Below, one piece after another: positions 8,165-24,822 of a stretch of DNA of 64,000 nucleotides. The translations under genes and the position numbers were made by a program. Below the pieces are notes generated by a model that saw only the letters and a program-made list of their open reading frames with translations, was not told the DNA's origin and made no database searches. Source of the stretch: Planctomycetota bacterium (GTDB taxonomy: Bacteria; Planctomycetota; Phycisphaerae; Sedimentisphaerales; Anaerobacaceae); the NCBI GenBank assembly GCA_042569785.1, contig JBHPGW010000005.1, positions 3,347 through 67,346 of the forward strand. The letters are read 5' to 3'. The stretch's first letter is position 1. Every line of letters starts with the position of its first letter.

Positions 8165-8198
8165 AATCTTCCCTTTTCGCCCATTTACGGGCAACTAA

Positions 8199-8844: not shown

Positions 8845-8850
8845 ATTTGT

Positions 8851-10545: not shown

Positions 10546-10966
10546 CTTCCTCGACAAACGGTAAAAACAGTGTTTTTCCTGTGGCAATCCAGAGGCTCTT
10601 ACGAACGATATTGCCATGACAACTTCTGCAGAAAGGAATAGTTCGCCCGTCAGGCAATTGAAGGTAATGGGCATGAGCCCTACATAAGGGACTGCCACAG
10701 CCTGAGGGATGGGGATTCTCTGTTCCACCACAATGCTTGTGGCATTTGATACAACTGATGGCCCCGCATTCGCGACACCGGCCACCAACAGAAGAAGTAA
10801 TGCAGCCACAATGGAGGCTTGGAATTTCTTCAAGTTCATAGCTTTCAACACCACCGTCTTCTTCAGATAATTTATGATACTCATCATTAACTCCCAAGAT
10901 ATCTATTTCATCGCTTTGAGGGTTCTTGCTGAATCTTCGACGAAAAATTTTTCTTAAAAATGACAT
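10523..10966 (-). CDS. Cys/His-rich putative zinc-binding protein
   Basis: The track start (10990) is a TTG. The ATG at 10966 (MSFLRKIF) has GGAG 7 nt upstream. The core is CGCITSSVGGRCRECGAISCIKCHKHCGG...GCGSPLCRAHAH...FCRSCH, with several CxxC pairs. Confidence 0.5.
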   Translation of the reverse strand: MSFLRKIFRRRFSKNPQSDEIDILGVNDEYHKLSEEDGGVESYELEEIPSLHCGCITSSVGGRCRECGAISCIKCHKHCGGTENPHPSGCGSPLCRAHAHYLQLPDGRTIPFCRSCHGNIVRKSLWIATGKTLFLPFVEEDGKTNEK

Positions 10967-10983
10967 GTAATTGCTCCGATCTA

Positions 10984-11160
10984 TTACCAAGGAGAATCAA
11001 ATATCACCCGGTTTAACCAGCCGGATAGTCGATATACAAATTTAGCAATAAACCATAAGCTAAATACACTCAGCAATATCAAGTCAAACGCCAGAAATGC
11101 ATACCCAATAAACCTCAAGATATCACCGGCATTGTCAGTAAATTTCTTTTTCCAACTCAT
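10984..11160 (-). CDS. Small single-pass membrane protein (below the ORF-track size cut-off)
   Basis: My own translation: MSWKKKFTDNAGDILRFIGYAFLAFDLILLSVFSLWFIAKFVYRLSGWLNRVIFDSPW (58 aa). ATG at 11160 is preceded by AAGGACAGGAA. It fills the gap between two operon genes. Confidence 0.35.
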   Translation of the reverse strand: MSWKKKFTDNAGDILRFIGYAFLAFDLILLSVFSLWFIAKFVYRLSGWLNRVIFDSPW

Positions 11161-11184
11161 TTCCTGTCCTTAAAAAATAAAGGT

Positions 11185-11583
11185 TTAAATATGTGCCGGT
11201 TGAAAATGTCTTTTCCGCTTTCCAAAAGCTATCGTATGGCTCATATATTTTTTACACGTGTTACTGACAAACGCCCATACCTTTGAAGCTGTGTTTTGGG
11301 TAGGAAGAGCAGCGGCTTTAACGGCATCAACAGATGCTTTTGTAATGTCAGGATTGTTCTGCGTCTGTGGTACCACGACGTTGGGTTCGACGTTTATTGC
11401 GACCAGTAACTCTGCGGCCTTATTAGCGCAAGGCTTGTTGAACCTGTTAAGTGAGCTTCTCTGGAGATTTCGTACGATTCGTTTTCGAATCTTGTTAGGG
11501 CATGATACTGCCGATTGTACTTTGGTTTTGTTAATATGTCTTTTTCGTTTCATAGTATCTGCCTTTCCTTTCCCAAATTCCAA
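11185..11583 (-). CDS. Basic hypothetical protein
   Basis: 132 aa with a Lys/Arg-rich N-terminus (MKRKRHINKTK...IRKRIVRNLQR). It is the first gene of the minus-strand operon. No family recognised. Confidence 0.3.
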   Translation of the reverse strand: MEFGKGKADTMKRKRHINKTKVQSAVSCPNKIRKRIVRNLQRSSLNRFNKPCANKAAELLVAINVEPNVVVPQTQNNPDITKASVDAVKAAALPTQNTASKVWAFVSNTCKKYMSHTIAFGKRKRHFQPAHI

Positions 11584-11794
11584 ATGTGTAATTGACTTAT
11601 TCGTTTATCCCTTTTAAACTGTTGGTTAACTGAATAACTTTACAACCGGAAATTACCATAAATGTCTGTGTTGTTCAAGTTGAAATTTGCATAAATACCG
11701 ACACAGCAAGCACTTACATTGCTATGCTGGAAAAATAGATGAAGTGACAATATGGAGTTAGAGCAATCTTCCGGATTTTGCGGAAAATCGAAAA

Positions 11795-14287
11795 ATGAAT
11801 GAAAAGTGGCCAAAATTTAAGATATATGCTGTCATAGATGGAAACAGTTCAGGGCTGTTTGCAAAAAGACAAATGTCTAAACATGCTCACTGGGAAGAAG
11901 CTTACTTTTATCTGACAGGAGGATTGGAACCAACTGAGGAGATTAAAAACGCGTGTAAAGGCAATTGGAGTTTATTAGACAGAGGAGATTATAATGAGGA
12001 TCGGCTTTTAAGGGAGTTGGTAGAATATGCAAAAGCTGCCGACAAAGCCAGTGATATGAAAATGAGTTGCGAGGTTACAGAAAAACATCATGCAGAAAAA
12101 GGCTATCAGGAGACCGTGAATCGTTATTTCGAAAACCCGAAAGGGGATGCGGAAAAACTACCTTTTAAAAAGTTCTTTATTGATGCTCCAGTTTTTAAGA
12201 TGAGTGTTCTAAAAAACGTGCGGGGACAGCATGAAAAAGTTCAGGGAATGGCGGAAGAGTTTGGTGTATTATCTCCACACAACATCGTAGTACGAGATAA
12301 TTTCAAGTATTTACGGCCGATAGAAGATGTGCTGAGAATCAAAGGTAATGAAAAATCAAAGTGGTTTCGAAAAACAGGCCCTTTAGCGGTAGATTTTGAT
12401 ACTGACAAGGTGTATTGTCGCAGAGAACTGCTTGATAAGCTTAAGAGTATGATCCTGAGCAACTCGCTTTCAATTCTTGAGGGTGTTGCTGCAGTAGGAA
12501 AAACAGTGCTTATTCGTCAACTTGCCTATGAACTCTTTCAAGAAAATGAGTTGGAAGTATATTATTTTGATTGTGATTTGAATAGAGGATTTGATCAGGC
12601 TGAGCTTACAAATGAAATCAACACACTGTGCGGTGTATTTATACTGGAAAACATTCATCTTGAAATACGTAAGATTCAGCGGTTATTGGAACAAATCAAA
12701 GAAGATTCAAAAAAACATGTTCTTTTTACAACTAGACCTTCATTCAGGGAGTTTCAATATACAAAAGATAATAGTCTAAATAACCTGGACTTTATAAGGC
12801 TAAAACCTTTTTGTCAGGCAGATGAGATTATAGACCATTTCATGTCGGTTCATCCCAGTGGTTTTTTACCTTCGGAAGTCGTGCAATCCATAAAGGATAT
12901 TGCAAAGGGCAGTTTTTGGCTTATGGCATATGCACTTGAAGGCTATATCAAAAAGTGTGATACTGATGAACCGCGAGCCTGGTTGGTTGAAGGGATAAAG
13001 GAAGACATGGAAGATCTTGAAAAGTTAAACCATGGTTTCCCTGAAGTTTTGGTTGCACTTTCTCCTCTTTATCAAATCGAGATATTGACTGAAGAAGGTT
13101 TCTTAACGAACACCCTGGGCTTTGACTTGAACTTGTTGAATGAACTGGTCAGAAGAGGTGAAATAACGAGACAGGTGAATTTGGATCAGTATGTATTATA
13201 TGGGCTGCCACATTCAGCCTTAGCTAAAGTTTACTGGGAACATGGTAAAAAATACCGTCGGCGAAGAAAACTGCAAAAACCCATTGATTTTATTTACGAG
13301 TATGCTGTATCAGGGGTTCCTAACGGACTGGAAGCGATCGTATTTAAGAATGAAGATGTACGGAATCAACTGTACATGCGAGTTAATGCTGCTGGGAAAA
13401 TGACAGAGGTTATAGAAAATGAGCTGTCCATGAAAGCAGTTAACTTTTGGATTAAAGATTGTGGTTCTTGTTCTATCAATAACCAATTATTGGTGATTCT
13501 AACTAATAAAATTTCGACACATGATGACATCCGTAATGCGGGATATTGTTTTCGTGATTTATATAAAGTTAATCCTAAAGCGGGGCAAAAACTATTTGAC
13601 CACATAGACCTCAAAAAATTGGCGAGTAGATTTAGTAAATCTACACATGTCATGGAGACATCTTCTTTTATTGATTGTTTTAATACCTCTGATCATAATA
13701 TGGCTATAGAGTTTTGTAATCTTCTTGATATAAAGAAACTAGCAAACGTACTGCCAGAAGTGAAGGTCTTCGGATGTATTTGTGCACCAATTTCTATACT
13801 ATTTATGGTGAATGATAGCATGGGATGGGAGTTTTGGAATCTCTTGGATTGGAAAAAACTCATATCAAAGTCAAAACAAATGAAGTACATTGCAATGACT
13901 TGCTGGGGTATTGGGATGGTGTTTTCCTATCAGAAATCTGCAGGTGAAAAACTTTGGAAAATGTTGGATGTTCAAGAGCTGGCAGATGTAGTGGTTAAGC
14001 ATAAAAATCCTCTTCGTATACAGAAGTGCTTTTTTTTCCTAAATTCAATAAAAAATCCCAAACCTATGCGAGAGTTTTTGAATTTACTGGATATTAGCAC
14101 GTTGGCGAATAATTTGAAAAAGTCAAAAAACGAAAATGAAAAAAAAGACTGTGTTTCCTATATCTGCAAAGTAGATAGAAATATTGGCGAAAAGCTTAAA
14201 TCACTGTTAAGTGGTAATTATCAGTTGCCCTATATGCTAGAACACAAGAAAAAGGTGGCAGAGAGAAAGAAAGAAAGACCGGATTGA
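11795..14287 (+). CDS. STAND/NACHT-like P-loop NTPase with C-terminal ~40-aa tandem helical repeats
   Basis: 830 aa. P-loop LEGVAAVGKTVLIRQLAYEL and Walker B-like CGVFILENIH. At least 5 tandem repeats occupy nt ~13589-14215: KLFDHIDLKKLASRF / EFCNLLDIKKLANVL / EFWNLLDWKKLISKS / KLWKMLDVQELADVV / EFLNLLDISTLANNL. The N-terminal ~220 aa matches no family I recognise. Confidence 0.6.
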   Translation: MNEKWPKFKIYAVIDGNSSGLFAKRQMSKHAHWEEAYFYLTGGLEPTEEIKNACKGNWSLLDRGDYNEDRLLRELVEYAKAADKASDMKMSCEVTEKHHAEKGYQETVNRYFENPKGDAEKLPFKKFFIDAPVFKMSVLKNVRGQHEKVQGMAEEFGVLSPHNIVVRDNFKYLRPIEDVLRIKGNEKSKWFRKTGPLAVDFDTDKVYCRRELLDKLKSMILSNSLSILEGVAAVGKTVLIRQLAYELFQENELEVYYFDCDLNRGFDQAELTNEINTLCGVFILENIHLEIRKIQRLLEQIKEDSKKHVLFTTRPSFREFQYTKDNSLNNLDFIRLKPFCQADEIIDHFMSVHPSGFLPSEVVQSIKDIAKGSFWLMAYALEGYIKKCDTDEPRAWLVEGIKEDMEDLEKLNHGFPEVLVALSPLYQIEILTEEGFLTNTLGFDLNLLNELVRRGEITRQVNLDQYVLYGLPHSALAKVYWEHGKKYRRRRKLQKPIDFIYEYAVSGVPNGLEAIVFKNEDVRNQLYMRVNAAGKMTEVIENELSMKAVNFWIKDCGSCSINNQLLVILTNKISTHDDIRNAGYCFRDLYKVNPKAGQKLFDHIDLKKLASRFSKSTHVMETSSFIDCFNTSDHNMAIEFCNLLDIKKLANVLPEVKVFGCICAPISILFMVNDSMGWEFWNLLDWKKLISKSKQMKYIAMTCWGIGMVFSYQKSAGEKLWKMLDVQELADVVVKHKNPLRIQKCFFFLNSIKNPKPMREFLNLLDISTLANNLKKSKNENEKKDCVSYICKVDRNIGEKLKSLLSGNYQLPYMLEHKKKVAERKKERPD

Positions 14288-14583
14288 TTCCGGCCTTTAA
14301 AAAAATCAAGGAATTCTTATAGGCACTTCAAAAACATCTTCTTCGCTTTCTTTCTAACGGATTTTTGATGTTATCAATCAGCTTTAATGCCTGACGCTTG
14401 GTTATTTTTTCAGGTATCTCTGCTCCAAGCCTTTTCAAGTATGCGGTCTGGTTTTCTGTTGCTGGGTAACTGAGCAAGCAAAGTGCCTTTTATGGCTTTG
14501 AGGGCCGAGACATTTTTTTAACAAAATCACAAAGTTTATAAACCCCACTTTCTTATTATTACCACTGGAGAGTTACAGTACAA

Positions 14584-15144
14584 ATGTTTCCAAATAAAAC
14601 ATACGAGCTTCGAAAATTGTATTTTGAGCAGAGTAAGTACTCTGCAAAACCAATTAAGCCTGAGTATCCGCTATTATTACAGTGGCCTGAAAAAGGTTAT
14701 TTTAAAAAATTAAAGCCCGATGTTGATCTGCTGCAGAGGGCATTGAAACCTGACAAAAATATCGAGGAAAAAAGTATATCGGAACAAATATTTGGTAATG
14801 AGATAAAACAGCAATCTATTGACCTTCATCATATAGCGAATTTATTTTACGAGCGTTGCAGGCTTCACAAAAACCATATCTCAGAAATCGATAGAAGGCA
14901 TATTGAGGCCCAGGAAAAACTGTTTGGAGTTCAAATTAATAATGCATCAGATAAAGGCAAACGTCTTTCAACTCTGGAAGGCCAGTTGTCACAGCTTGAT
15001 CAACAGAGAAGAGAAGAAGAACTTGCGTTTTGGAAGGATACTGTAGAGCTAAGAGGAACGTTATTTGAAAACTCTGGTGACTACAGAGCCGCTAAGCAAA
15101 GAGAATTTATTTTCTCTGATGTGGAGGCTGGCTATGGCAGATAA
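14584..15144 (+). CDS. Coiled-coil hypothetical protein, partner of the second HerA-like ATPase
   Basis: 186 aa. Heptad-like region LSTLEGQLSQLDQQRREEELAFWKD. GGAG lies upstream of the ATG. Its stop overlaps the next gene's start (ATGGCAGATAA). Confidence 0.45.
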   Translation: MFPNKTYELRKLYFEQSKYSAKPIKPEYPLLLQWPEKGYFKKLKPDVDLLQRALKPDKNIEEKSISEQIFGNEIKQQSIDLHHIANLFYERCRLHKNHISEIDRRHIEAQEKLFGVQINNASDKGKRLSTLEGQLSQLDQQRREEELAFWKDTVELRGTLFENSGDYRAAKQREFIFSDVEAGYGR

Positions 15145-16801
15145 TACCGGTTCTGCAGGCGTGCGGCAGCTCTGTTTAAAATTAAAACCAGTACTTGGCT
15201 CTAAGATTGACAAAATCTATACCGCTTATATGGCTGAGGATGATAAAGGCAGAGACCAGATCGAACATTATTTACAACAATTAACAGCTAAATATCTGCC
15301 CACTAAACTAAGTGAAACCGGCACAGCCCTTATTCCACCATCGGAAGAGCAAGCTACAGGCGAATATCCAATTGGCAAAGTTCAATATGCTGGAAAAGAT
15401 TTTTATGACTTTAGCTTAAGAGAAGATGATTGGATCCAGCACATGGCAATACTTGGAAGGAGCGGAGCAGGTAAGACTAATGTAGGGTTTTTGATTATCG
15501 ATCAACTTAAAAAACATAACAAGCCATTCCTGCTGTTTGACTGGAAGCGTAATTACAGGGATTTGCTTTCTATCCCAGGATTTGAAGATGTGGAAGTTTA
15601 TACTATAGGAAGGAACATTGCACCATTTACGTTTAATCCGTTAATACCGCCAGCAGGTACCAATCCAAAGACATGGCTGAAAAAGCTAAATGAAGTGCTT
15701 GCTCATTCATATTGCCTAGGAAATGGATGTTTATTTTTACTTCAGCAGGCTGTCGATGCTGTGTATGAAAAGGCGGGCGTATATGAGGGCACTGTCGAAA
15801 AGTGGCCAACCTTTAATGATGTCATGCGCGAAGCTAGGAGCATGGACACACGAGGTAGGGAATCTGGCTGGTTGTCTTCAACATTAAGGGCTTTATCAAC
15901 ACTTTGCTTCGGTGATATGGATAAACTGGTAAATTCAAATAACAACAAAAGCATTGACCATATACTTGATAAAAATGTTATCCTCGAACTCGATGCCCTT
16001 ACTCAATCAGATAAAACCTTTTTTATTCAGTCAGCTTTGCTTTATTTGCATCATAAGCGTATGGCAGAAGAAAGAAGAGAAGATTTCAAACATGCAATCA
16101 TAATTGAGGAGGCACATCATATATTGTCAGACGAAAGAAGATCTTTAACCGGGGGGCAAAGTGTTATGGATATTGTCTTCAGAGAAATTCGTGAGTTTGG
16201 CGAAAGTCTGATACTATTGGATCAGCATCCGAGTAAAATATCACTTTACGCTCTCGGAAATACTTATTGTACGATCTGCATGAACTTAAAACACAAGACA
16301 GATATTAATGCCATGGCTCAGTGTATGCTGTTGGATCGAGATAGAGATATTTTAGGTTCGCTCGAAGTTGGCCAGGCTGTAGTGAAACTGCAGGGAAGGA
16401 TCGCGAGACCTTTTCAGATTCAAATGCCGCTGTTTGAAATACAAAAAGGGTCGGTTCGCGATAGTGATGTTAAAAAACATATGCAAGATATTGCTCCACC
16501 TATAGTCGTAGAAGATTTTCGGTTACCTGTCCAGGTATCTGAAAGTATCGCCATAGTGGAAACAAATCCAACTGATAAACTAAAAATTGCTTTTCTCAAA
16601 GATGTTGACGAGTATCCTGACAGTGGCATTGCCAACCGATATAAACGGCTTGACATTTCCGTACGTCAAGGCCAGAAAATTAAGGCACAGGCAGTTGGGG
16701 AAGATTTAATTGAAGAAGCGATCAAAGCTACAAGTTCAGGAAGATTAAACACCCTTAAGCTGACAGTGAAGGCTGAAATCTTGCTGTCTGACTCAAAATA
16801 A
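15134..16801 (+). CDS. HerA/FtsK-superfamily P-loop ATPase with C-terminal HTH-like region (second copy of the architecture)
   Basis: Preferred start is the ATG at 15134 (MADNTGSAG), which overlaps the upstream stop. Motifs: Walker A ILGRSGAGKTN; LLFDWKRNY; FNPL; Walker B AIIIEEAHHIL; LLDQHPS. C-terminal region: SGIANRYKRLDISVRQGQKIKAQAVGEDLIEE. Confidence 0.7.
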   Translation: MADNTGSAGVRQLCLKLKPVLGSKIDKIYTAYMAEDDKGRDQIEHYLQQLTAKYLPTKLSETGTALIPPSEEQATGEYPIGKVQYAGKDFYDFSLREDDWIQHMAILGRSGAGKTNVGFLIIDQLKKHNKPFLLFDWKRNYRDLLSIPGFEDVEVYTIGRNIAPFTFNPLIPPAGTNPKTWLKKLNEVLAHSYCLGNGCLFLLQQAVDAVYEKAGVYEGTVEKWPTFNDVMREARSMDTRGRESGWLSSTLRALSTLCFGDMDKLVNSNNNKSIDHILDKNVILELDALTQSDKTFFIQSALLYLHHKRMAEERREDFKHAIIIEEAHHILSDERRSLTGGQSVMDIVFREIREFGESLILLDQHPSKISLYALGNTYCTICMNLKHKTDINAMAQCMLLDRDRDILGSLEVGQAVVKLQGRIARPFQIQMPLFEIQKGSVRDSDVKKHMQDIAPPIVVEDFRLPVQVSESIAIVETNPTDKLKIAFLKDVDEYPDSGIANRYKRLDISVRQGQKIKAQAVGEDLIEEAIKATSSGRLNTLKLTVKAEILLSDSK

Positions 16802-16987
16802 GCTCATTTTTCAATGGTTTTTTGCTTCCGAAATTACCCTCATAAAATTATTTGCTTTAGGGTCGTATTAACAAGGACTTATGAATTACTTATCATTGTT
16901 TATCGTGGCGAATAGATAGAAGGATAAATAATAAATAAATCAAAAAAGGCGTTCTGTCCTTCAAAATGAAAGCTAAGAGAGAGTAGG

Positions 16988-17186
16988 GTTTATGCGTCAA
17001 GTCTATTGTTATAGGCTATCGCAGTATTCTATTTATTCAGTATATTTCACTGCCAGCTATGTCCAACCTATTCGCTTTCACCGGCTATAAAAAGCAAATG
17101 GCTTTTATAAATGTTTCTTACCACTCTGAGGTGAAAAGGAAATCACTCCTTCAAAAACATGAAGGAATTTGGCTCACGCATAAACT
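16988..17186. repeat. Iteron-like motif copies downstream of the orc1/cdc6-like gene, next to an AT-rich stretch
   Basis: acgcataaact at 17176-17186. An inverted copy, gtttatgcgt, at 16988-16997. An AT-rich run aatagatagaaggataaataataaataaatcaaaaaa at ~16911-16947. The 10-mer tccttcaaaa is repeated at 16957 and 17147. Confidence 0.45.
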
Positions 17187-17197
17187 GCACACTCTCT

Positions 17198-18337
17198 CTA
17201 CCCAAACCTTGTTTGCCAGATAGTGGCGAGAATACTTGGGTCGAAAGTCAATTGGATTCTGTTTGTGTATGTTCTGCTGATCTTGGTGGAAATCAGCAGG
17301 ATCAGGCCGAGGGACTGCAGGTATGATAGATTGGAATAGAAATGGACATAGCTAAAAGGCTCTTCGTTGAATTGGGTACTGATCATTCGATAGGATTGAT
17401 ATATGTCTTTTACGTAACCATCTCGCTGCGAAAGGGCTGCTTTTAGGATGAGCAGGTTCTTGTCGTTTAAGTCCCTAACTACATCGAACATTATATCCCG
17501 CCTGGCTTTTTCAAAATGTTCTTTCAGGGGCACCTTAGGTTCCAGGGCCCAGAGATATAAGGTTTTAATCGCTACCCTGACATCGGAATTTGTGTTGCCG
17601 ACGGTCATAGCGGCGATTGCATTGATAGTTCCGGTAGGATTTGATTTTAAACCCATTCGAGCTCGTTCTGTAAGGATTTTTTGCATTTCAATGGCATCGT
17701 AACTGCTGAAGTGAATTATTTCCGGCTGAAGCGTGCTGTTTATACTTTCATCAAGTGAATTGAGGAATTTGGGGTTATTGCTGAGAAGAATGGTCATATA
17801 ATTGTTTGGTGACCGGCTGACAAGGTAGAGAATATCTTTGTGCCTGTCTTTGTCGCTCATCAGGTCGATTTCATCCAGGATGAAAACGGTTTTGTTTTTG
17901 TTTCCTATTTCGAATCTTTGCCATAATTCATCCAGGCTGACACCTCTTGGCCTAACATCAAGTATATGAGCTATGATTTTGAAACTGGTATTATGCTGCC
18001 TGCAGTTGACGTAGATGAAATTGATATCTGTTTGCTGAGCTAATACGTGCATAAGATATTTAGCAGAGAGGCTTTTGCCGCAGCCCCTGGCACCGAGAAT
18101 TATGACATTGTTGGCGATGCTTGTTTGATTGTAACGCAGCAATGAGTCGATCAGTGGTTTGACTTCCTCACGCATCAAAGGCTTATCGGGTATATAGTTG
18201 AAGTCAAAGATTTTGAAATTCTGTATTCTGTCAGAGTTCTTTTTTAAATCCTGCTGTTTAGTTTTAAGGTATTCAGTGATGTCCATTTTACGCGTAAACT
18301 TTACCCAACGTATAAACTCACGGGGCTTTATAAACAT
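17198..18337 (-). CDS. Orc1/Cdc6-type AAA+ replication-initiator-like protein with C-terminal winged helix
   Basis: Orc1/Cdc6 layout throughout. Motifs: FDFNYIPDKPLMREEVKPLIDSLLRY; Walker A ILGARGCGKS; IYVNCRQHNTSFKI; Walker B VFILDEIDLM; ILYLVSR; LLSNNPKFLNSLDESINSTLQPEIIHFSSYDAIEMQKILTERA; GNTNSDVRVAIKTLY. C-terminal wH: YSNLSYLQSLGLILLISTKISRTYTNRIQL. The true start may be Met18 (ATG at 18286), because the first 17 codons overlie two iteron-like repeats. Confidence 0.8.
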   Translation of the reverse strand: MFIKPREFIRWVKFTRKMDITEYLKTKQQDLKKNSDRIQNFKIFDFNYIPDKPLMREEVKPLIDSLLRYNQTSIANNVIILGARGCGKSLSAKYLMHVLAQQTDINFIYVNCRQHNTSFKIIAHILDVRPRGVSLDELWQRFEIGNKNKTVFILDEIDLMSDKDRHKDILYLVSRSPNNYMTILLSNNPKFLNSLDESINSTLQPEIIHFSSYDAIEMQKILTERARMGLKSNPTGTINAIAAMTVGNTNSDVRVAIKTLYLWALEPKVPLKEHFEKARRDIMFDVVRDLNDKNLLILKAALSQRDGYVKDIYQSYRMISTQFNEEPFSYVHFYSNLSYLQSLGLILLISTKISRTYTNRIQLTFDPSILATIWQTRFG

Positions 18338-18392
18338 TATGGTTTTATTTCGAGAAATGCCTTACGCATAAACTAAAGCGAACGCTTAAACT
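18290..18392. repeat. Four direct 11-bp iteron-like repeats ACG[C/T][A/G/T]TAAACT at the 5' end of the orc1/cdc6-like gene
   Basis: acgcgtaaact 18290-18300; acgtataaact 18308-18318; acgcataaact 18364-18374; acgcttaaact 18382-18392. They form two pairs with an 18-nt pitch, 56 nt apart. The same 11-mer recurs at 17176. Confidence 0.55.
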
Positions 18393-18683
18393 GAAGGGTA
18401 TTTCAATTATTCAAATTTAGGCCCCCTACTGACACAGCATGCAGGTTATTCGGTGTACCGAAAACAAGAACGGTCTATTATAATTATGACTCAAGCGTAT
18501 GTTTTGTGTCGGTAAGTATGTCTATAAATACAGCTACTCCATAGGGGAAGATAACTATTAAGGCATAAATATCAATCTTCACTTTTCCCATATCCATGGG
18601 AATTACCATAATAACACAGAAAGATTCACTCTCTGTCAAACGCAATCAATCGACTAAACGATGTAATTAGTCGTTTGATCCGA

Positions 18684-19292
18684 CTAATTTGTGTTGAGAT
18701 AATTTTCAATTTTCAGGCCTTCACAAAGCTTAAACCGATTCCGATTATCTCTGTCCACAGCTTTGCTGAATAAATTAGCTTTTGAGTTGATCTGCCGCAT
18801 TTGGTTTTTGATGGTATTTGGGGACTTGTTTAAAGCTCTGGCAATATCAGCATACGAAAGAGCCATATCCCGATTCTGGAAAAATACGCTTAAAATATTT
18901 TTTTCTTTGGCTGAGAACGTGTCAATATCAAGGCCCTGATTCAAGGGTTTTTGTGGCAATATAGGTAACTGCTGGGCTGGCAAAGGCATGATTGATCGAT
19001 TAGTCGGTTCGATTTGCTCTTTGATCGGGGTAATTGCTGGTTGAGCGACTAATTGCTCCAGGCTTTTCAGCTGATTGGAATTCTTTTTGATTATGATCGT
19101 ATGTTCTGTAATCTCCTGGTCATGCTTTTGCAGAATTATATTTAAAGTGCCGATTTGAGAGTTAAGGTTCCTGATCTCGGACTTTAGTCTTGTGAGTTTC
19201 TGGGTGGATTCAGGAACTGATCTATTAGATCGCCTTTTTCTGGCCTTGCGTTTTTTCTTCCTTTTGAATATGCCAAATAATCCCATTTTCAA
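18684..19292 (-). CDS. Coiled-coil protein with C-terminal LuxR/GerE-type HTH
   Basis: 202 aa. Basic N-terminus KRKKKRKARKRR, coiled-coil middle, and C-terminus FSAKEKNILSVFFQNRDMALSYADIARALNKSPNTIKNQMRQINSK. Its start overlaps the upstream stop. Confidence 0.5.
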   Translation of the reverse strand: MKMGLFGIFKRKKKRKARKRRSNRSVPESTQKLTRLKSEIRNLNSQIGTLNIILQKHDQEITEHTIIIKKNSNQLKSLEQLVAQPAITPIKEQIEPTNRSIMPLPAQQLPILPQKPLNQGLDIDTFSAKEKNILSVFFQNRDMALSYADIARALNKSPNTIKNQMRQINSKANLFSKAVDRDNRNRFKLCEGLKIENYLNTN

Positions 19293-19609
19293 TAAACTCT
19301 TATAGGCGAACCCAGATAATAGGTTTGAGCTTCAATTAATTCGAGCTGTTTTTTTATTCGCCTATACTGAGAATCGGTAAGCCTGGCATTGCTGTCATCA
19401 AGGGCTTGATGTATCTGCATAGCCAGAGATAGAAAAGATGAATATTTGTCCATTAAATCTTTGCTGGCGGTATTATTGAATCTGATAAAAGAAGATGGCC
19501 CTTGCCTTGCCTCATGGGATTTTAGCTTCTGCCAGGCTAATAAAGCTTTCATATCTTCCAGAATATGCCGGAGAGTTTGCAGCCCGGCTACCAGTTCTGT
19601 CTCTGTCAT
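19289..19609 (-). CDS. Hypothetical helical protein
   Basis: 106 aa. 4-nt overlap with the downstream HTH gene. No family recognised. Confidence 0.3.
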   Translation of the reverse strand: MTETELVAGLQTLRHILEDMKALLAWQKLKSHEARQGPSSFIRFNNTASKDLMDKYSSFLSLAMQIHQALDDSNARLTDSQYRRIKKQLELIEAQTYYLGSPIRVY

Positions 19610-19646
19610 AAAGGATTAAAGCTGGCCTAGTATAAAAACCTTTTGC

Positions 19647-19853
19647 TTACAGGTACATATCGTCATAATCGTTCATGTCTTCCCAGCTCAATTCATCGGG
19701 GTCATGATAACCAGAATCATCTTCATGGTGTTCATGCAAATGGTCCAGTATCCTGTTTGAGACCCTACGGATAGCCATAGTATGCTCACAGATCTCTTCA
19801 AGAAGCTGAGTATGCTTCTCTTGTTCGGTTGGTGTGTTTTTTTTTGCTGTCAT
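19647..19853 (-). CDS. Small highly acidic protein
   Basis: 68 aa. The C-terminal half is rich in D/E/H (HLHEHHEDDSGYHDPDELSWEDMNDYDDMYL). Confidence 0.3.
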   Translation of the reverse strand: MTAKKNTPTEQEKHTQLLEEICEHTMAIRRVSNRILDHLHEHHEDDSGYHDPDELSWEDMNDYDDMYL

Positions 19854-19950
19854 TGTAAAATGGTAACGAGGAAAGAGTTTTTAAGCTTTTCGGTGATTAA
19901 ATATGCGTTTAAATTATGGATGATTCAATAGAGCTGTCGCTAAATGGTTG

Positions 19951-19981
19951 TAAAAACCGCGGCCAGAATATGCGGCCGCGG
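19951..19981 (-). terminator. Intrinsic terminator closing the Ubl-E2-JAB-E1 operon
   Basis: The minus-strand RNA reads CCGCGGCC-GCAUAUUCU-GGCCGCGG-UUUUUA: an 8-bp all-GC stem (19957-19964 / 19974-19981), a 9-nt loop and a U5 tail. It begins 10 nt after the E1 stop. Confidence 0.7.
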
Positions 19982-19991
19982 AAAAAGAAAA

Positions 19992-20651
19992 TCACCCCAC
20001 GTCACTAACATTTAACTCCGAAGCCAGAAGATTTAATTGGATATCTGGATCAATTGGTAATAGGCGTAAGTACTTTGTGAATTGAGCAAGCATGAAGCCG
20101 GCTGCTATGTTGGCACAGTATATGGTTGTTTTGGCAGTACAAGGGCCCGTGTGAGCTTGCTGGGCGGTGAATAGGGTCTGAGGGTAGTGTTGGCGGCTTG
20201 GTTCATCACAGGCGGTTATAACTCGCAAAACTTCTGCTGACATTCTACCATCTACGAAGAAGTTGGCCTTATCTTTCACAGCATCCCATATGTGCTTTCT
20301 AGCGACAATTGAATCCACACAGCAAAATACCGTATTGCCCAGAGGTATTGACCGTTTGAATTTATCCAGCACGATCTCAACTTGCAGCTCGTGATTGATC
20401 TCTCGGCAGAACTCGGCTGTTACGTCAACCTTGGGGCGTTTTAGGTCTTTGTGCATATAACCTTGTGTTGCCAGGTTACTGATATCCACGTGATCAAAGT
20501 CGATAAGTTGTAAAACAGGTATGCCGATTGCGGTTAGTTGGATTGCAACCTGTCTGCCAATGGCTCCTATGCCAATCACTGTAGCCTTGCAATCTAGTAT
20601 TCGCTGTCTTGGTACAATATCAGCTTGTCTTGAGTATCTTTCACTGCTCAT
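19992..20651 (-). CDS. ThiF/MoeB-family E1-like adenylyltransferase (minimal, adenylation domain only)
   Basis: RYSRQ...ATVIGIGAIGRQVAIQL (GxGxxG), LIDFDHVDISNLATQGY, LKRPKVDV. Preferred start is the ATG at 20651 (MSSERYSRQ), which has GAGG 6 nt upstream and an 11-nt overlap with the JAB stop. Confidence 0.8.
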   Translation of the reverse strand: MSSERYSRQADIVPRQRILDCKATVIGIGAIGRQVAIQLTAIGIPVLQLIDFDHVDISNLATQGYMHKDLKRPKVDVTAEFCREINHELQVEIVLDKFKRSIPLGNTVFCCVDSIVARKHIWDAVKDKANFFVDGRMSAEVLRVITACDEPSRQHYPQTLFTAQQAHTGPCTAKTTIYCANIAAGFMLAQFTKYLRLLPIDPDIQLNLLASELNVSDVG

Positions 20652-21393
20652 ATGACACCTCGCTTTCATCCCAGAAATCACTTCTTATTGACAGTTCTTC
20701 CATGAAATACTCTCGTTCCATAGGGTCCATAGAATCGATCTCAGAGAGTAAATCCTGATCTGTTAAGCTACCAAAATCTTCAAAGCCATCACTTCCAAAA
20801 ACATCGGCTTCTTCAGTTTGCTTAATCCTTTTTGATTTGCCGGTGAGGTTGAAGATCGTATCTTCGGTGACATTAGCCATGTATTGTTGCTGCCAAACCT
20901 CGAAGTCAGCGGCATCGAATTCGCAACTGTAATCGACACAGATGGGAATCTTTGCTTCTCCGCCTGGACCTGCGTTGAAACGCAGCCTTGCGAATGTGCT
21001 TCCTTCCTGGGCGACGATAGCCATGATAGACCAGTCGCATGAGCCGAACACTCGCTGGAATGTTGATTCGTCGGTACAACTTGGCTGTGGTGAATCGCCG
21101 GGATGTGTGTGGAGCCAAATGCGGGCGAATTGTTCAGGTTGCCGTCCTGCTTCTACCTGGTCTTCGAAAAAGTCCGCAACCGCTTCATCATCAAATGAGA
21201 CTGAGACGGCTGTTACTTTTTGTTTTACCAGGACAAAATCCGTTACAAGTAACAGATCATCAGCTTCGGTGATTCCAAAACCGCCAACTTCGTTATCGGT
21301 TATGTCACGCAGGAATACGAGTTTGGCCCAGGCTGTCGGGCTGAACCGCAGGCTTGGTTTCTGATGTTGTTGTGTCTTCTTCAAGTTCTTCAT
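20641..21393 (-). CDS. JAB/MPN (JAMM) metallopeptidase with acidic C-terminal tail
   Basis: The track ORF (to 21819) has a 142-aa N-terminal extension that is an alternate frame of the E2 Cys-rich tail. The ATG at 21393 gives MKNLKKTQQ. JAMM elements are DNEVGGFGI (Glu) and WLHTHPGDSPQPSCTDESTF (HxH-x7-S-xx-D). Confidence 0.8.
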   Translation of the reverse strand: MKNLKKTQQHQKPSLRFSPTAWAKLVFLRDITDNEVGGFGITEADDLLLVTDFVLVKQKVTAVSVSFDDEAVADFFEDQVEAGRQPEQFARIWLHTHPGDSPQPSCTDESTFQRVFGSCDWSIMAIVAQEGSTFARLRFNAGPGGEAKIPICVDYSCEFDAADFEVWQQQYMANVTEDTIFNLTGKSKRIKQTEEADVFGSDGFEDFGSLTDQDLLSEIDSMDPMEREYFMEELSIRSDFWDESEVSYEQ

Positions 21394-22360
21394 TTTCTTG
21401 TTCCTCTCTCTGCTCTTGGCAGCTATTACATAAACCATCTTCATTAATACAATCTTTACAGAGCGTTTCTTCGCATTCTGTACATACCGCTGTACAGCTA
21501 TTGCAAACAGGTTGATTGCAAGCTGGGCATTCATAGCTGCAACCCAGGCAAATCGTTGTGTCGCAAATCTGGCAATAGGTACTGCAACTGGAGCAGTAAT
21601 CACGCTCGCAATCTTCACAATAGTAGCAATCATCGCCTGCAACCGTGTATCCACAGTCATAGCAGGAAATACCTTCCCAGTCATCCAGTGATACATAAGG
21701 GCTGTCTGGATTGTAGGTTTGCAGAATCTGAACGATGATCGTAAAAAAATCGTTAAGCCTGCCTTGTTGAATTGCCTTGCGGATCGCAATGTAGCCATCG
21801 CCTTCACATAGCTTTTCATGGCTGACGTGTGGATGAGTTACATCGCAATCGCTGCCTGCCGGGTTTGGCTCAAGGGCTATGATCTTGTATGGGCTTTCAG
21901 TTGTGAGCTTTTTTATCTCGTTTAGAAATAGTCGAATTTCAAATGCTCCAAGCGTAATATCATCGAGCACTATTGATTCTGTTATTACCGAGATGGACTT
22001 TGCTTTGAGATCAAATTTTAGTTCGCCGAATTCCTGTTCAATCTGCAACAGTTCTGCAACCACATCGCCTAACTTGGGCAGTTTTATCTCGTCAGTATTG
22101 ATGGTACTCTTGAACTGCTCAAGGTGGTGTGAAAAGTCGTTGAGATTTCTACTGATCCTTGATCGTATCTTTTCAGCAGCTGGATACCAACACCTGTCAA
22201 TGGCTCTTTGGAAGATGGGAGAGTTTTTGGTTACGTCAGAGCACTTGCAGCTGAAGTCTTCAAGCCGATGTTGTATCTTTAGTAGCCTTTCATGTTTAAG
22301 ACTGTTTAGAGCCTGCAAGAGCAGGTTTGCCGCTCTTATATGTTTTTTGTACTTTTTCAT
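21305..22360 (-). CDS. E2 (UBC)-like protein with N-terminal helical extension and C-terminal 21-Cys CxxC-repeat domain
   Basis: A beta-meander-like stretch ITLGAFEIRLFL is followed by THPHVSHEKLCEGDG (HPH-x6-Cys, as in prokaryotic E2s). Residues 233-314 (nt 21419-21664) hold 21 Cys in 10-11 CxxC pairs. Confidence 0.6.
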   Translation of the reverse strand: MKKYKKHIRAANLLLQALNSLKHERLLKIQHRLEDFSCKCSDVTKNSPIFQRAIDRCWYPAAEKIRSRISRNLNDFSHHLEQFKSTINTDEIKLPKLGDVVAELLQIEQEFGELKFDLKAKSISVITESIVLDDITLGAFEIRLFLNEIKKLTTESPYKIIALEPNPAGSDCDVTHPHVSHEKLCEGDGYIAIRKAIQQGRLNDFFTIIVQILQTYNPDSPYVSLDDWEGISCYDCGYTVAGDDCYYCEDCERDYCSSCSTYCQICDTTICLGCSYECPACNQPVCNSCTAVCTECEETLCKDCINEDGLCNSCQEQREEQENEELEEDTTTSETKPAVQPDSLGQTRIPA

Positions 22361-22444
22361 AGATACTCCTTAATGAAAAAAAGGCCTCTGCCTATAATTG
22401 AAAATAAGCAGAAGCCTTATGGTTAATGTTTACGAGCAAACAGC

Positions 22445-22669
22445 TCAGTAAGCCGCTCCATCTATCTTGGTTGGCGTTACTGTTACCCTGTCGTTTTCCT
22501 TTAGCACATAGTCCTTCGGGACTGGCTGGCGATTTACACGGATCAAATAATCTGCCGCTTCATCGTGAGGCATCTTTTGCTTGAAAAGCTTTTCGATACT
22601 TGTGCCCTCTTCGACGTTAATAAAATCTGCAAATCCGCCACCATTGTTATTTATGTACATTATTTTCAT
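22445..22669 (-). CDS. ThiS/MoaD-like beta-grasp ubiquitin-like protein
   Basis: 74 aa. LIRVNRQPVPKDYVLKENDRVTVTPTKIDGAAY parallels the ThiS C-terminal half (INQQIVPREQW...DGDQILLFQVIAGG). It is the first gene of the E2-JAB-E1 operon. Confidence 0.6.
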   Translation of the reverse strand: MKIMYINNNGGGFADFINVEEGTSIEKLFKQKMPHDEAADYLIRVNRQPVPKDYVLKENDRVTVTPTKIDGAAY

Positions 22670-22819
22670 GTTTTTTCCTTTCGGTAAAGTGTTAATATTT
22701 TGAAATTTACTTGTGACTACAATCTACTGATTCTTTTATCAAGGTGGACTGCGCGCAGCGGTACCACTATAATTTTGCATGGGTTTTCCTTTCTGAATTG
22801 AATATTGAAGTGTGTTTAG

Positions 22820-23128
22820 TTAATCTTTAAACATTTCCGGTACTATCTCTTGGAGCATTTTCGGGCTCCAATATAAGTCACGCTCAATGGGCAGTCCCAT
22901 CATTCCTCTTACACTTTGGAGTTCTCTCAGGCTGAAATAGCCCAGTTCTTTTTCATGACCTTCTACCAGGCCAAAGAATGTATCATCGCCATCGAATTCT
23001 GTAGCGTACCATGTCCAGTTGGCGTCTGGGGTGAAGAATTTTACATGTGCGATTGCTTTGCCACCTTTGTCTTCCTGAGAATATAATGGCGGCAGTTTTG
23101 TTTTGACTTCTTTGGTTACAAGTTTCAT
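22820..23128 (-). CDS. DUF2958-family protein
   Basis: KLPPLYSQEDKG...VKFFTPDANWTWYATEFDGDDTFFGLVEGHEKELGYFSLRELQSVRG..LPIERDLYWSP matches the conserved DUF2958 signature I recall from plasmid/ICE proteins. Confidence 0.75.
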   Translation of the reverse strand: MKLVTKEVKTKLPPLYSQEDKGGKAIAHVKFFTPDANWTWYATEFDGDDTFFGLVEGHEKELGYFSLRELQSVRGMMGLPIERDLYWSPKMLQEIVPEMFKD

Positions 23129-23205
23129 GATTGTTACCTACCTTTCGTTAAATGTGATGGAAAAATACCATCGTGGGTTAAATAAAAAAACAATTAGAAA
23201 TGGTT

Positions 23206-23481
23206 TCAGCCGTAAATATCACTCACTGATGAGCTTTCTGGTTGACTTGGGTCCTTACGCTCGGTCAGGTGTTCAAATGCCTTCTGAAGAGCTAATATGG
23301 CTTTAGGGATGTCGTTTATACTCAGGCTGTTGGTGCCCTGCCATTGACCTGTCTTATCTTTGTACCTGACTTCAATTACAACTTTTGGCAATTGAATCGA
23401 CTGACCGTTCTTTTGTATGGTGTTTCTAAATACAGCTGCTCTTACAGCACCTATCTTGAAAACAGTTTCTGGTTTTGACAT
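23206..23481 (-). CDS. Small hypothetical protein; possibly PC4/YdbC-like ssDNA-binding fold (tentative)
   Basis: 91 aa. IGAVRAAVFRNTIQKNGQSIQLPKVVIEVRYKDKTGQWQGTNSLSINDIPKAILALQKA. AGGAGGAA SD upstream. The fold guess rests on the pattern only. Confidence 0.3.
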   Translation of the reverse strand: MSKPETVFKIGAVRAAVFRNTIQKNGQSIQLPKVVIEVRYKDKTGQWQGTNSLSINDIPKAILALQKAFEHLTERKDPSQPESSSVSDIYG

Positions 23482-23502
23482 TTTCCGCTTATTCCTCCTA
23501 TC

Positions 23503-23532
23503 GATTGGTAAATACCAATCAGTACGATCGTA
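23503..23532. promoter_or_regulatory. Two adjacent perfect palindromes upstream of the 23481 gene start (candidate operators)
   Basis: gattggta-aa-taccaatc at 23503-23520 and tacgatcgta at 23523-23532. They sit immediately 5' of the SD of the minus-strand gene 23206..23481. Confidence 0.3.
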
Positions 23533-24096
23533 AAGTCGATAGACTTAATAAGCATTTTGCTTGTGCAGTATATATAAGGCCGAGAGGAGGCGTTTTAAAA
23601 ACGCGCCTGTAGTAAGCGTGTATTCAAACAACGTCGAAATCGAGGCCGAGTATTATAATCTGCATAAAGCAAAAAAACCGTTGCTGTCAGCTAGGTTTAT
23701 ATCTGCTGGAACATAACGGCAGAAGAATATAGTGGTAGAATACGATATGAGTTGATCGCCAGTAATGGCGGAAGTGATAAAGCGATAGCTAAGAAAGATA
23801 TATTTGTGTTTTGGGGTATTTCGGGTGAAATACCTGTTCTCCAGCCCGGAAAAGGCTAAATTAAAGATCTTCGGAAATTCAGGTTTTTCAAAGCTATTGT
23901 GTTTCCTGGATAAGCTTTTGTGGTTGTGCAAGCTTTTTGTCAGGATGTATTAGTTTTGATGTTTTGAATTTTACTAATCTTCAAGTTCTATAAGTTTCGT
24001 AAGTTTATAAAGCTTTCTATCGGTTCGAAGGTCTCACTTTTCATGCTTCAATCGACAGGTTTAAAAAGTCTGCTGATTTCACATTAGGGCACGAAT

Positions 24097-24822
24097 GTGA
24101 AGAAAATGAGGCAAAACAACAACTTCTCCCGTATAAGAAAGTCGCCAAAAAAGGTAAAATCTTCAAATGTGAAATTATTGAAAAAATACCACAATTTCGG
24201 CGAGACTATACGGTATCTAACAATAAATGAATTAAAACAACTCTTCGATTGTATTGACAATTATCACCATAAGCTGATGTTCCAGGTTGTCTATGAACTC
24301 GGCTGTAGAGTTGGCGAATTCGTAAGGATTCAGATCAAACATTTGAACTTTTCAAGAAGTACTGTTTTCTTCCCTGCTGAAAATACCAAAACCAAATATC
24401 CACGGACCAGCTATTTGCCAAAGGGTCTGATGAATGAGATCAAAAGCATTTTAAAACAAAAACAGATAATCAGTAAAAGAGAGGAAAATATTAGAAAGTC
24501 AGGAGCTTATCTGTTTCATCCTGGTCAAAGATGGAATCAGAGATATACAGAAAATCGTATCCGACAGATATTTCAGCATTACGCAAAGATAGCGAAATTA
24601 CAGACAGTATATGGAAAAGATACATGCGGGAGAAATCTGAAGATGTTTACCGTTCACTCCCTCAGGCATAGCCATGTAATGCATTATACCATTGATTACA
24701 AATTACCATTGCCGATTGTTCAAAAACAAGTTGGGCACAGAAGCCTGAAAACAACTTCGATTTATTTGAAACCATCAACTGAAAAAATTGCAGAAGCATA
24801 TGAAAAAGCAGTATTAGAATAG
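24097..24822 (+). CDS. Short tyrosine recombinase (phage integrase family, Xer-like catalytic domain)
   Basis: 241 aa with a GTG start. ELGCRVGEFVRIQIKHL (box I Arg), HSLRHSHV (HxxR) and VQKQVGHRSLKTTSIYLK (His and the catalytic Tyr). Confidence 0.8.
   Translation: MKKMRQNNNFSRIRKSPKKVKSSNVKLLKKYHNFGETIRYLTINELKQLFDCIDNYHHKLMFQVVYELGCRVGEFVRIQIKHLNFSRSTVFFPAENTKTKYPRTSYLPKGLMNEIKSILKQKQIISKREENIRKSGAYLFHPGQRWNQRYTENRIRQIFQHYAKIAKLQTVYGKDTCGRNLKMFTVHSLRHSHVMHYTIDYKLPLPIVQKQVGHRSLKTTSIYLKPSTEKIAEAYEKAVLE

Follow-up and report, generated by a model that had tools for sequence, protein, structure and literature searches.

Orc1/Cdc6 proteins are regarded as a hallmark of archaea and eukaryotes, in which they load MCM; bacteria use DnaA and DnaB instead, and their plasmids use Rep proteins. 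Orc1/Cdc6-dependent replicons are already known in archaea, and ATPases of the Orc/CDC6 clade are already known in bacterial conflict systems. Here, we describe an orc1/cdc6-like gene (hereafter orc1) of a Planctomycetota bacterium, the repeats that surround it and the integrative mobile element that carries both, in a stretch of 64,000 nucleotides that we call the window (positions 3,347 to 67,346 of contig JBHPGW010000005.1, assembly GCA_042569785.1; coordinates below count from its first letter). The element is mobile, and the geometry of its repeats recurs identically in archaeal plasmid relatives. In our reading of these comparisons, orc1 encodes a sequence-specific initiator that serves a family of small, integrating mobile elements in Planctomycetota.

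Features of this locus recall several described systems. Iteron plasmid replicons such as P1, F, R6K, and pPS10 carry direct repeats of ~18 bp at a regular pitch before the initiator gene, and self-repression at the own promoter is known for iteron-plasmid Rep proteins and for DnaA. The integrative conjugative elements of actinomycetes, exemplified by pSAM2 and SLP1, combine int, rep, the FtsK-like TraB, and clt. In archaea, the 7.6-kb plasmid pPO1 of Picrophilus oshimae is present at 12–15 copies per chromosome, and single-stranded intermediates were not found; its authors proposed that Orc1/Cdc6 is a theta-replication initiator and that the adjacent AT-rich, repeat-rich intergenic region is the origin (PMC3177234). 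A search of the literature turned up no report of a family of integrative elements in Planctomycetota that encodes Orc1/Cdc6, or of its conserved site architecture. The nearest account is a defence-oriented survey, one supplementary file of which makes no mention of planctomycetes (PMC10853773).

A divergent Orc1/Cdc6 protein

The longest open reading frame at the locus (17198–18337, minus strand) encodes 379 aa. A preliminary description of the window had ascribed the Orc1/Cdc6 layout to this product and had proposed Met18, at 18286, as the real start; both proposals hold. Nearly all of the best 120 homologues (68–94% identity) are 362 aa long, as is the window protein when counted from Met18. 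Upstream of the ATG, the distance to a conserved TTTATAAA box is 47, 48, or 49 nt and varies among loci by 1-nt indels, which argues that the 17 ‘codons’ 5' of Met18 are non-coding. The indels and the 362-aa homologues together exclude a coding extension upstream of Met18. The exact window protein is absent from the gene-position collection.

Three lines of evidence place the protein in the Orc1/Cdc6 family. First, the NCBIfam model TIGR02928 (orc1/cdc6) matches residues 40–346 at E 3.9e-42 with 144.4 bits, which does not reach the curated cutoff of 181.3 bits; in Pfam, the Cdc6_C winged helix (E 4.4e-5, 23.8 bits, cutoff 25.1) and Cdc6_lid (E 0.01) match alongside generic AAA models. Second, a profile built from 14 family members retrieves the DNA-bound Orc1-1 of S. 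solfataricus (SsoOrc1-1; 2qby_A) from the PDB at E 3e-32 over query residues 30–353, followed in order by Orc1-3, A. pernix ORC1, and P. aerophilum Cdc6. Third, a structural model resembles these proteins. An AlphaFold2 prediction from a shallow alignment (14 sequences, 69–91% identity) gave a predicted local distance difference test (pLDDT) score of 56 and was discarded; redone with 46 diverse sequences, it reached a pLDDT of 92.5 and a predicted template-modeling (TM) score of 0.87. When this second model was compared with the PDB using Foldseek, all 50 of the top 50 matches were Orc1/Cdc6/ORC chains, the best being again 2qby_A (E 2e-21, TM score 0.67, 365 aligned columns). The fold and domain order are those of the DNA-bound Orc1 structures 2qby and 2v1u.

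The ATPase signatures can be followed residue by residue. Walker A (GARGCGKS, residues 65–72 in the 362-aa numbering) and Walker B (FILDEID) align with the corresponding motifs of 2qby_A; G65, G68, G70, K71, and D138 are invariant among the 46 sequences, and E139 is kept in at least 90% of them. When the profile is aligned to 2qby_A, sensor 1 (LLSNNP) pairs with ITNDVKF of SsoOrc1-1, and sensor 2 (SDVRVAIKTLY) with GDARRALDLLR; in the same 46 sequences, D235 is invariant and R237 at least 90% conserved. The initiator-specific insert, judged by the topology of the model and not by residue contacts, consists of helices 101–109 and 118–128 between strands 89–94 and 133–138, the latter being the Walker B strand. 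The C-terminal winged helix is built by helix 313–325 and the β-hairpin 329–346. The window protein is a true member of the Orc1/Cdc6 family with a C-terminal winged helix, encoded in a bacterial genome. A generic AAA_22/TniB-type ATPase lacking the winged helix, the alternative considered in the preliminary description, is ruled out by the winged helix itself, the profile match to 2qby_A, and fold matches confined to Orc1/Cdc6 chains. Judged by sequence, the protein belongs to a divergent Orc1/Cdc6 subfamily whose nearest relatives are plasmid Cdc6 proteins.

Direct repeats and a promoter-like box before orc1

The motif ACGYDTAAACT has five exact matches on the plus strand of the 64-kb window, at 17176, 18290, 18308, 18364, and 18382, against 0.16 expected; none of 100 dinucleotide-preserving shuffles reaches five. 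Its core, TTnACGCGTnAA, is dyad-symmetric. Of the six copies initially reported, five match exactly, and the inverted copy at 16987–16997 (GGTTTATGCGT) departs from the pattern at the last base only. The four direct copies 5' of the gene had been correctly located and paired at an 18-nt pitch, and their enrichment is indeed local and non-random: the motif is conserved at the DNA level in more than 100 related loci, mostly in metagenome-assembled genomes (MAGs) of Planctomycetota, often with several copies per genome.

Comparison of 82 non-identical loci defines the array. Two proximal copies are present in nearly all of them, and the distal pair at an 18-nt pitch in 22. Within the 400 nt upstream of orc1, all 161 forward matches to the 8-mer core fall between −130 and −10, and only three matches lie in the reverse orientation. 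The ~50 nt before the Met18 ATG are conserved among loci at the DNA level and, in 114 loci, follow with small variations the consensus CG(A/T)TAGA-TTTATAAAC-CCNNGAGAG-TTTATACGT-TCGGTGAGG-TTTATGCGT-N3-4-ATG. This leader consists of three 18-nt units, the first being the TTTATAAA box, which may be read from its sequence as a promoter-like core or as a degenerate third repeat unit. The consensus fold of the leader has −0.5 kcal/mol and 0 covarying pairs, and Rfam gives no match at E ≤ 0.1 across 8000–26000; the conservation therefore resides in the DNA, and an RNA element is ruled out both here and in the inverted-repeat segment described below.

Four TTTATAAA boxes are found in the window element, at 14535, 17104, 18327, and 24004. 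The first lies 49 nt before the ATG of p186, which forms an operon with herA, the gene of a HerA/FtsK-superfamily ATPase; the second is inside the inverted-repeat segment, the third before orc1, and the last before the integrase gene int. Because a box precedes each operon, it behaves like the promoter core of the element, which argues for a position of the proximal repeats in the promoter/leader region of orc1. The box is often preceded by GAAA(A)G; it resembles an archaeal B-recognition element (BRE)/TATA arrangement, yet is conserved in bacterial hosts, and it does not fit the −10 rule for sigma-70 of the scanner used.

With four copies in two pairs of 18-nt pitch, the array has the composition of iterons, that is, at least three regular direct repeats of 17–22 bp by a rep gene. 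As in iteron plasmids, the repeats precede the initiator gene with the promoter embedded or adjacent, implying autoregulation. Unlike iteron plasmids, the locus encodes an AAA+ Orc1/Cdc6 protein and not a winged-helix initiator of the RepA type, has two to four repeats only, and carries an additional inverted pair elsewhere; no DnaA box (TTWTNCACA) was found within the element. The four upstream repeats mainly look, from their sequence and placement, like an autoregulatory operator or an iteron array. Further upstream, a palindrome with a perfect 13-nt stem (ATCAATCGACTAA / TTAGTCGTTTGAT) and a 9-nt loop occupies 18645–18679, between orc1 and the stop codon of the neighboring helix-turn-helix (HTH) gene, and is a possible terminator or operator.

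The inverted-repeat segment

The two stray motif copies at 17176 and 16988, which the preliminary description had recorded but not connected, form the two arms of an inverted repeat that is convergent and conserved (16976–16997 / 17176–17197). The arms are 22 nt long, 82% complementary, and separated by 178 nt; in aligned loci, they extend to ~28 nt (AAGAGAGWGTGCAGTTTAYGCGTCAAG). In 1.24 Mb of loci, 38 of the 51 convergent core pairs that lie 100–400 nt apart are spaced 180–199 nt from start to start, whereas divergent pairs number six only and are scattered. Convergent arms near an initiator gene, the arrangement of archaeal origins built from origin recognition boxes (ORBs), are kept in at least 35 non-identical loci.

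An alignment of 35 non-identical segments was used to analyze the spacer. It contains a conserved block with a small palindrome and TTTATAAA (17102–17133), the conserved sequence CACTTnAAAGTGGTGGGAAAAGTTTATAAAG, three ATAGCC boxes (~17010–17019, 17052–17060, and 17083–17090), two conserved CGATCG palindromes, an A/T-rich (A-rich) tract (17022–17050), and a terminator-like hairpin for orc1 (17145–17168). The AT content of the spacer exceeds that of the flanks by 4.9 points and is higher in 31 of the 35 loci (Wilcoxon p 1e-6). The AT-rich run at ~16911–16947 noted earlier does exist, but it is not a conserved structure: it falls outside the arm pair, and the 94% identical relative L055 lacks it, with only 14 nt between the arm and herA.

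In archaeal chromosomal origins (oriC), inverted ORBs flank a markedly AT-rich duplex-unwinding element beside orc1/cdc6. As in those origins, inverted putative initiator sites surround a spacer by the initiator gene, and shorter ‘mini’ copies of the site occur. Unlike those origins, the segment has a weakly AT-rich spacer and a bacterial host, its Orc1 scores below the TIGR02928 cutoff, and its motif (GTTTAYRCGT) is not similar to the mini-ORB of Sulfolobus and Pyrococcus; the consensus GTTCCAGTGGAAAC has no match with up to three mismatches in or near the element.

The segment takes two orientations relative to orc1 but always a single one relative to the 3' end of herA, which it abuts in both arrangements of the element. 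It is not present in a clade that lacks herA, and the loci L042–L045 retain it without an adjoining herA. It is not the attachment site attP, because it stays intact inside integrated copies; an invertible promoter switch is likewise ruled out, because the orientation of the segment always goes with that of herA and no independent flip is seen. Homology between related elements often stops exactly at the outer arm, a junction that looks like a cargo insertion hot spot.

The tight linkage between segment and herA suggests a HerA-type hexamer as the motor at this site. It could be a replicative helicase or, by analogy with traB–clt in the integrative elements of actinomycetes, pump DNA when the element is transferred or segregated. 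In the latter case, Orc1 would be a loader or positioning factor for the HerA/FtsK motor, the segment would be a transfer or segregation locus used as clt is by TraB, and HerA would drive the excised element, as double-stranded DNA, into a recipient or daughter cell, with replication secondary or driven by the host. Such a role would explain why the segment always adjoins the 3' end of herA and keeps one orientation to it in either arrangement, and why it is missing where herA is missing. It would also suit a minimal element that comprises exactly integrase, orc1, segment, herA, and p186, and the pairing of Cdc6 with a DUF87/AAA_10 ATPase on pPO1 too, while the extra conserved spacer boxes (three ATAGCC, CGATCG) could serve a second protein. 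The minimal element resembles pSAM2 and SLP1 in combining an integrase and an initiator with a single FtsK/HerA ATPase, whose gene has a cis locus at its 3' end; it differs in the families of initiator and motor and in phylum. We consider this explanation unlikely. The arm motif is also the orc1-promoter motif and is kept without herA, L042–L045 have the segment without an adjacent herA, one archaeal relative of the same geometry has MCM and not HerA by cdc6, and no other conjugation genes were found. The loader role overlaps, however, with an origin function of the segment and does not exclude it.

Architecture shared with archaeal plasmids

Among the 72,556 plasmids in PLSDB, the best match to the window protein is the Cdc6 protein of pPO1 (363 aa), with 30% identity over the full length and E 8e-49. 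The best 25 of 386 matching records are all archaeal, with no bacterial plasmid relative among them, and every match is below 60% identity.

The arrangement of sites is common to both groups. The window has arms of 22 nt with 178 nt between them and pairs at an 18-nt pitch. In pPO1, arms of 32 nt are separated by an AT-rich spacer of 183 nt; in L135, a pPO1-like contig that is circular with a 141-nt terminal overlap, arms of 31 nt are also 183 nt apart; and in L138, an archaeal metagenomic contig whose Cdc6 protein is 49% identical to that of pPO1, arms of 65 nt lie 177 nt apart around an extremely AT-rich spacer, with copies of the core (ACGTGTGTAAT) at an 18-nt pitch and before the ATG. Within 943–2994 and 3100–3900, L138 has an MCM gene directly upstream of cdc6 and a textbook origin, with G-strings in the arms, a nearly pure A/T spacer, and at least eight copies of ACGTGTGTAAT.

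Small archaeal Orc1/Cdc6 plasmids, represented by pPO1, by pTA1 from Thermoplasma (PMC3177234), and by metagenomic relatives, are the closest known systems, and the closest in sequence among the 72,556 plasmids, with proteins of 362–363 aa on both sides, convergent arms 177–183 nt apart, and more core copies before cdc6, some of them at an 18-nt pitch. As in the window element, the genes of a DUF87/AAA_10 ATPase and a recombinase accompany cdc6 on the small plasmid pPO1. The differences are equally clear. Archaeal plasmid hosts have MCM, and L138 encodes it beside cdc6; the archaeal plasmids are free circles (pPO1, L135), whereas the bacterial elements are seen integrated only; their spacer is extremely AT-rich and their arm sequence, GTGTGTGTGTAAAATGCACATGAAAA, is unlike that of the window; and they use a serine recombinase where the window element has a tyrosine recombinase.

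On sequence grounds, then, the bacterial elements and these archaeal plasmids have the initiator subfamily in common, and its presumed sites are laid out alike. This agreement is our main reason to favor an origin function for 16976–17197 and an autoregulatory or iteron function for 18290–18392. The initial comparison with ORB and iteron origins was apt; the arm pair is the better origin candidate, because the arm–spacer–arm arrangement of 177–183 nt is also present in the archaeal plasmid relatives.

Proposed mechanism of initiation

We lean slightly toward a model in which Orc1 would be both the initiator and the autoregulator of the element and the inverted-repeat segment its origin. In this model, the integrase would excise the element before replication. 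Orc1 would recognize the ~12-bp dyad core (TTnACGCGTnAA, usually GTTTAYRCGT) within sites of 18–28 bp and, when bound to the two to four direct copies of the leader (18-bp pitch, from the TTTATAAA box to the ATG), would repress its own gene. The two convergent arms of 22–28 bp, 178 nt apart (16976–17197), would constitute an ORB–spacer–ORB origin, where two oppositely oriented Orc1 protomers or oligomers may distort or melt the spacer and bring in a ring helicase. Where a bacterial host has no MCM, this helicase would be either host DnaB or the HerA-type hexamer of the element.

By elimination, we infer that Orc1 binds the motif, since it is the sole DNA-binding protein common to all loci, which were themselves collected via orc1. 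Minimal elements without the HTH, p106, and p68 genes still have the motif, and so does the clade without herA and without the inverted-repeat segment. We likewise infer autoregulation, origin firing, and the helicase partner.

Several points weigh against the model. The AT enrichment of the spacer (+4.9 points) is modest, unlike that of the archaeal relatives, and a spacer with a promoter-like box could be a regulatory region. The segment travels with herA, to which its orientation is fixed and without which it is missing, and not with orc1. The score of Orc1, 144.4 bits, is under the curated TIGR02928 cutoff. None of the ~130 bacterial loci lies on a circular contig, and contig coverage, where visible from contig names, is chromosome-like. 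The element has no conserved gene for MCM, DnaB, a primase, or a polymerase; DNA binding, excision, and replication of the element are predictions. Lastly, Orc1/Cdc6 paralogues can be pure transcription factors, as Orc1-2 exemplifies (PMC6061795).

This last point raises the prospect that Orc1 is a transcription factor only, its initiator function having been lost as in the Orc1-2 proteins of Sulfolobales. The promoter repeats would then be an operator, and the arms would flank and control the internal TTTATAAA promoter, which would fire antisense toward herA. The repeats do lie between a promoter-like box and the ATG, the TTTATAAA box is found within the segment as well as before each operon, AT enrichment of the spacer is not strong, and the herA-less clade retains the promoter sites only. 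The DNA-damage regulator Orc1-2, which binds a short promoter motif, is a precedent for a regulatory role (PMC6061795); it differs from the window protein in having a chromosomal archaeal regulon, another motif, and no inverted-arm segment. We judge a purely regulatory function to be decidedly unlikely: the ATPase motifs are all invariant across the family, which a pure repressor need not maintain (although Orc1-2 does); the 177–183-nt geometry also occurs on archaeal plasmids that have no candidate initiator but Cdc6; and the integrative element would otherwise be without a replication gene.

A bolder variant of the initiator model is possible but doubtful. An archaeal-type Orc1 would have been re-wired in bacteria for a ring motor other than MCM, loading or positioning, at the inverted-repeat segment, the HerA/FtsK hexamer of the element or possibly host DnaB. 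The initiator–helicase pair would be a new one, and the 5-kb element (integrase, Orc1, origin, HerA, and p186) would be a self-contained unit that both replicates and transfers itself, is widespread in Planctomycetota, and is of the same stock as pPO1-type plasmids.

A large and conserved family of bacterial mobile elements keeps a complete Orc1/Cdc6 protein, ATPase-competent by its motifs, together with the site architecture of archaeal plasmids. If the elements replicate, initiator and origin would be portable across domains, the helicase that Orc1 loads in a cell without MCM would become a testable question, and a needed replicon or vector backbone would be available for Planctomycetota genetics. 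If they do not replicate, they would offer a clean bacterial case of Orc1 recruited for regulation or for HerA loading.

Gene content and mobility of the element

What the preliminary description called a bacterial-looking island can be defined as an integrative mobile element that encodes a tyrosine integrase (Table 1), as the related loci L126 and L018 make clear: they have only a 5.2-kb block in common, between unrelated flanks. Of the bacterial neighbors listed at that time, the WbaP-like Bac_transf gene is present, and the RuvB-like AAA+ assignment is weak. Host glycosyltransferase genes start at 24995, and next to them, at ~24.8–25.0 kb, lies the right end of the element. No convincing direct repeats of an attachment site were found at the ends of the window element or of the minimal element.

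Table 1. Positions of the orc1 gene, its candidate sites, and the other genes of the element in the window.
Feature	Position	Strand	Remarks
p186, conserved partner gene upstream of herA	14584–15144	+	no known family
herA, HerA/FtsK-superfamily (DUF87) ATPase	15065–16801	+	578 aa; start codon uncertain
herA-proximal arm	16976–16997	.	fixed orientation relative to herA 3' end
Spacer	16998–17175	.	178 nt; candidate initiation site
orc1-proximal arm	17176–17197	.	abuts orc1 stop codon
orc1/cdc6-like gene	17198–18286	-	362 aa, starting at Met18 (coordinates include the stop codon); domains: AAA+ core, lid, C-terminal winged helix
Proximal direct repeat 1, nearest ATG	18290–18300	-	gene-sense AGTTTACGCGT; about −12 from ATG in most of 82 non-identical loci
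Proximal direct repeat 2	18308–18318	-	18 nt from repeat 1; about −30 relative to ATG
TTTATAAA box	18327–18334	.	18 nt upstream of repeat 2; conserved in nearly all loci
Distal direct-repeat pair	18364–18392	-	18364–18374 and 18382–18392; 18-nt pitch
Conserved genes upstream of orc1	18684–19853	-	HTH 18684–19292; p106 19289–19609; p68 19647–19853
Accessory module	19992–23481	-	ThiF-like E1 19992–20681; JAB within 20641–21819; p351 21305–22360; ThiS-like ubiquitin-like protein (Ubl) 22445–22669; DUF2958 22820–23128; p91 23206–23481
int, short tyrosine recombinase/integrase (XerA-like)	24097–24822	+	Pfam Phage_integrase E 4.9e-22; NCBIfam XerA E 2e-21

The canonical gene order is int(-), p91, [DUF2958], Ubl, p351, JAB, ThiF, p68, p106, HTH, and orc1, followed either by p186, herA, and the inverted-repeat segment in the same direction or by the inverted-repeat segment, herA(-), and p186(-). 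The window shows the second arrangement (strands in the canonical-order notation). The minimal unit of ~5.2 kb, found in a clade with 54–60% identical Orc1, contains the integrase, orc1, the inverted-repeat segment, herA, and p186, without HTH, p106, and p68; the window version measures ~10 kb and adds the Ubl/E1/JAB module. In the herA-less clade, int and orc1 are followed by cargo (type I restriction–modification, SNF2, an E2-like protein, and surface proteins); a conserved helicase, primase, or polymerase was sought beside orc1 in this clade, and only cargo was found. No MCM gene is present in the bacterial loci examined. Four MAGs each contain two to four copies of the element.

HerA, found in 55 loci, matches Pfam DUF87 (E 1.1e-9), a weak TraG P-loop, and, partially, the NCBIfam models for CedD, HerA, and VirB4-like proteins. 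Short and XerA-like, the integrase lacks an arm-binding domain; it lies at the element end in 17 loci. Directly before its start codon is a palindrome, TTCACATTnGGnnCnnAATGTGAA, which is probably an operator controlling the integrase and is seen in the window (~24078–24101), in L126 (~8540–8565), in L018, and in L132. The p186 product has no match in Pfam, the PDB, or PADLOC, and no family was found for p186, p106, p68, p351, and p91.

The ubiquitin-like cassette (19992–22669, minus strand; see also L120:11243–12613) encodes a ThiF-type E1, a JAB peptidase, a 351-aa protein, and a 74-aa ThiS-like Ubl, and recurs in ~18–32 related loci; in one relative, a UQ_con (E2-like) protein stands beside orc1 in place of it. 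Other relatives bear variable cargo beside orc1 or the segment (L003:11248–14685, L024:2230–4248, L130:3357–6425, and L022:1541–4390), including a DinB-type polymerase (IMS) with URO-D, type I restriction–modification subunits, and an SNF2 helicase.

Such cargo bears on the idea that the locus is an anti-invader defence system of the kind described by Aravind's group, in which Orc/CDC6 localizes a restriction apparatus and HerA captures invading DNA. The coupling of an Orc/CDC6-clade ATPase with a HerA/FtsK ATPase in mobile neighborhoods is a described theme of such systems (PMC10853773) and a genuine likeness to the window; in addition, a STAND NTPase adjoins the element in the window, and restriction–modification cargo lies beside orc1 in relatives. 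Nevertheless, we hold a defence function to be very improbable. The defining inactive restriction endonuclease (REase) insert between AAA+ core and winged helix is missing, as the 362 aa are colinear with the 386-aa SsoOrc1-1 and, in the model, the winged helix comes directly after the lid. No REase gene was found: p186, HerA, HTH, p106, p68, and p351 show no nuclease family in Pfam, NCBIfam, PADLOC, or PHROGs, searches that remote folds may escape. The orc1 protein has only weak PADLOC matches, the best at E 2.4e-6 in the P-loop region. Finally, an integrase of its own and cis sites that match its own promoter, features that set the element apart from those neighborhoods, are expected of a selfish replicon and not of a sensor of foreign DNA.

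Distribution of the family

The protein family comprises 927 clusters at E ≤ 1e-3, the few named ones being annotated as ‘Cdc6/Cdc18 family protein’ and assigned to Planctomycetota, Phycisphaerae, or Anaerobaca. A scan with one genome per species yielded 35 loci, mostly in Planctomycetota MAGs (Pirellulales, Phycisphaerales, Sedimentisphaerales, and Planctomycetales) and a few in Verrucomicrobiota, Nitrospiraceae, Hydrogenedentota, and Ignavibacteriales; another 80 loci came from a scan of metagenomes. The bacterial assignment is not a binning artefact, because contigs of up to 5.6 Mb carry the gene. The GC content of the elements follows host composition, from 43 to 66%. An origin from a phage or provirus was rejected: there is no match in 50,697 phage records or in IMG/VR, and PHROGs gives only generic P-loop matches.

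Neighboring genes

To the left of the element, the window encodes a second HerA-like P-loop protein of 678 aa with a C-terminal HTH_36 domain (8851–10887, minus strand) and the 830-aa STAND NTPase (11795–14287, plus strand). The 678-aa protein is encoded near orc1 in L021, L036, and L115 as well; in L031, a weak match coincides in part with that locus's own herA gene. Farther left, a cluster at 3016–8194 (minus strand) encodes a 945-aa Tubulin_2-like protein, a VWA-domain protein, and the RuvB-like AAA+ protein, whose RuvB_N match (E 4e-17) is weak for a housekeeping RuvB. This cluster may be an unrelated conflict or segregation system and not the Holliday-junction helicase originally named.

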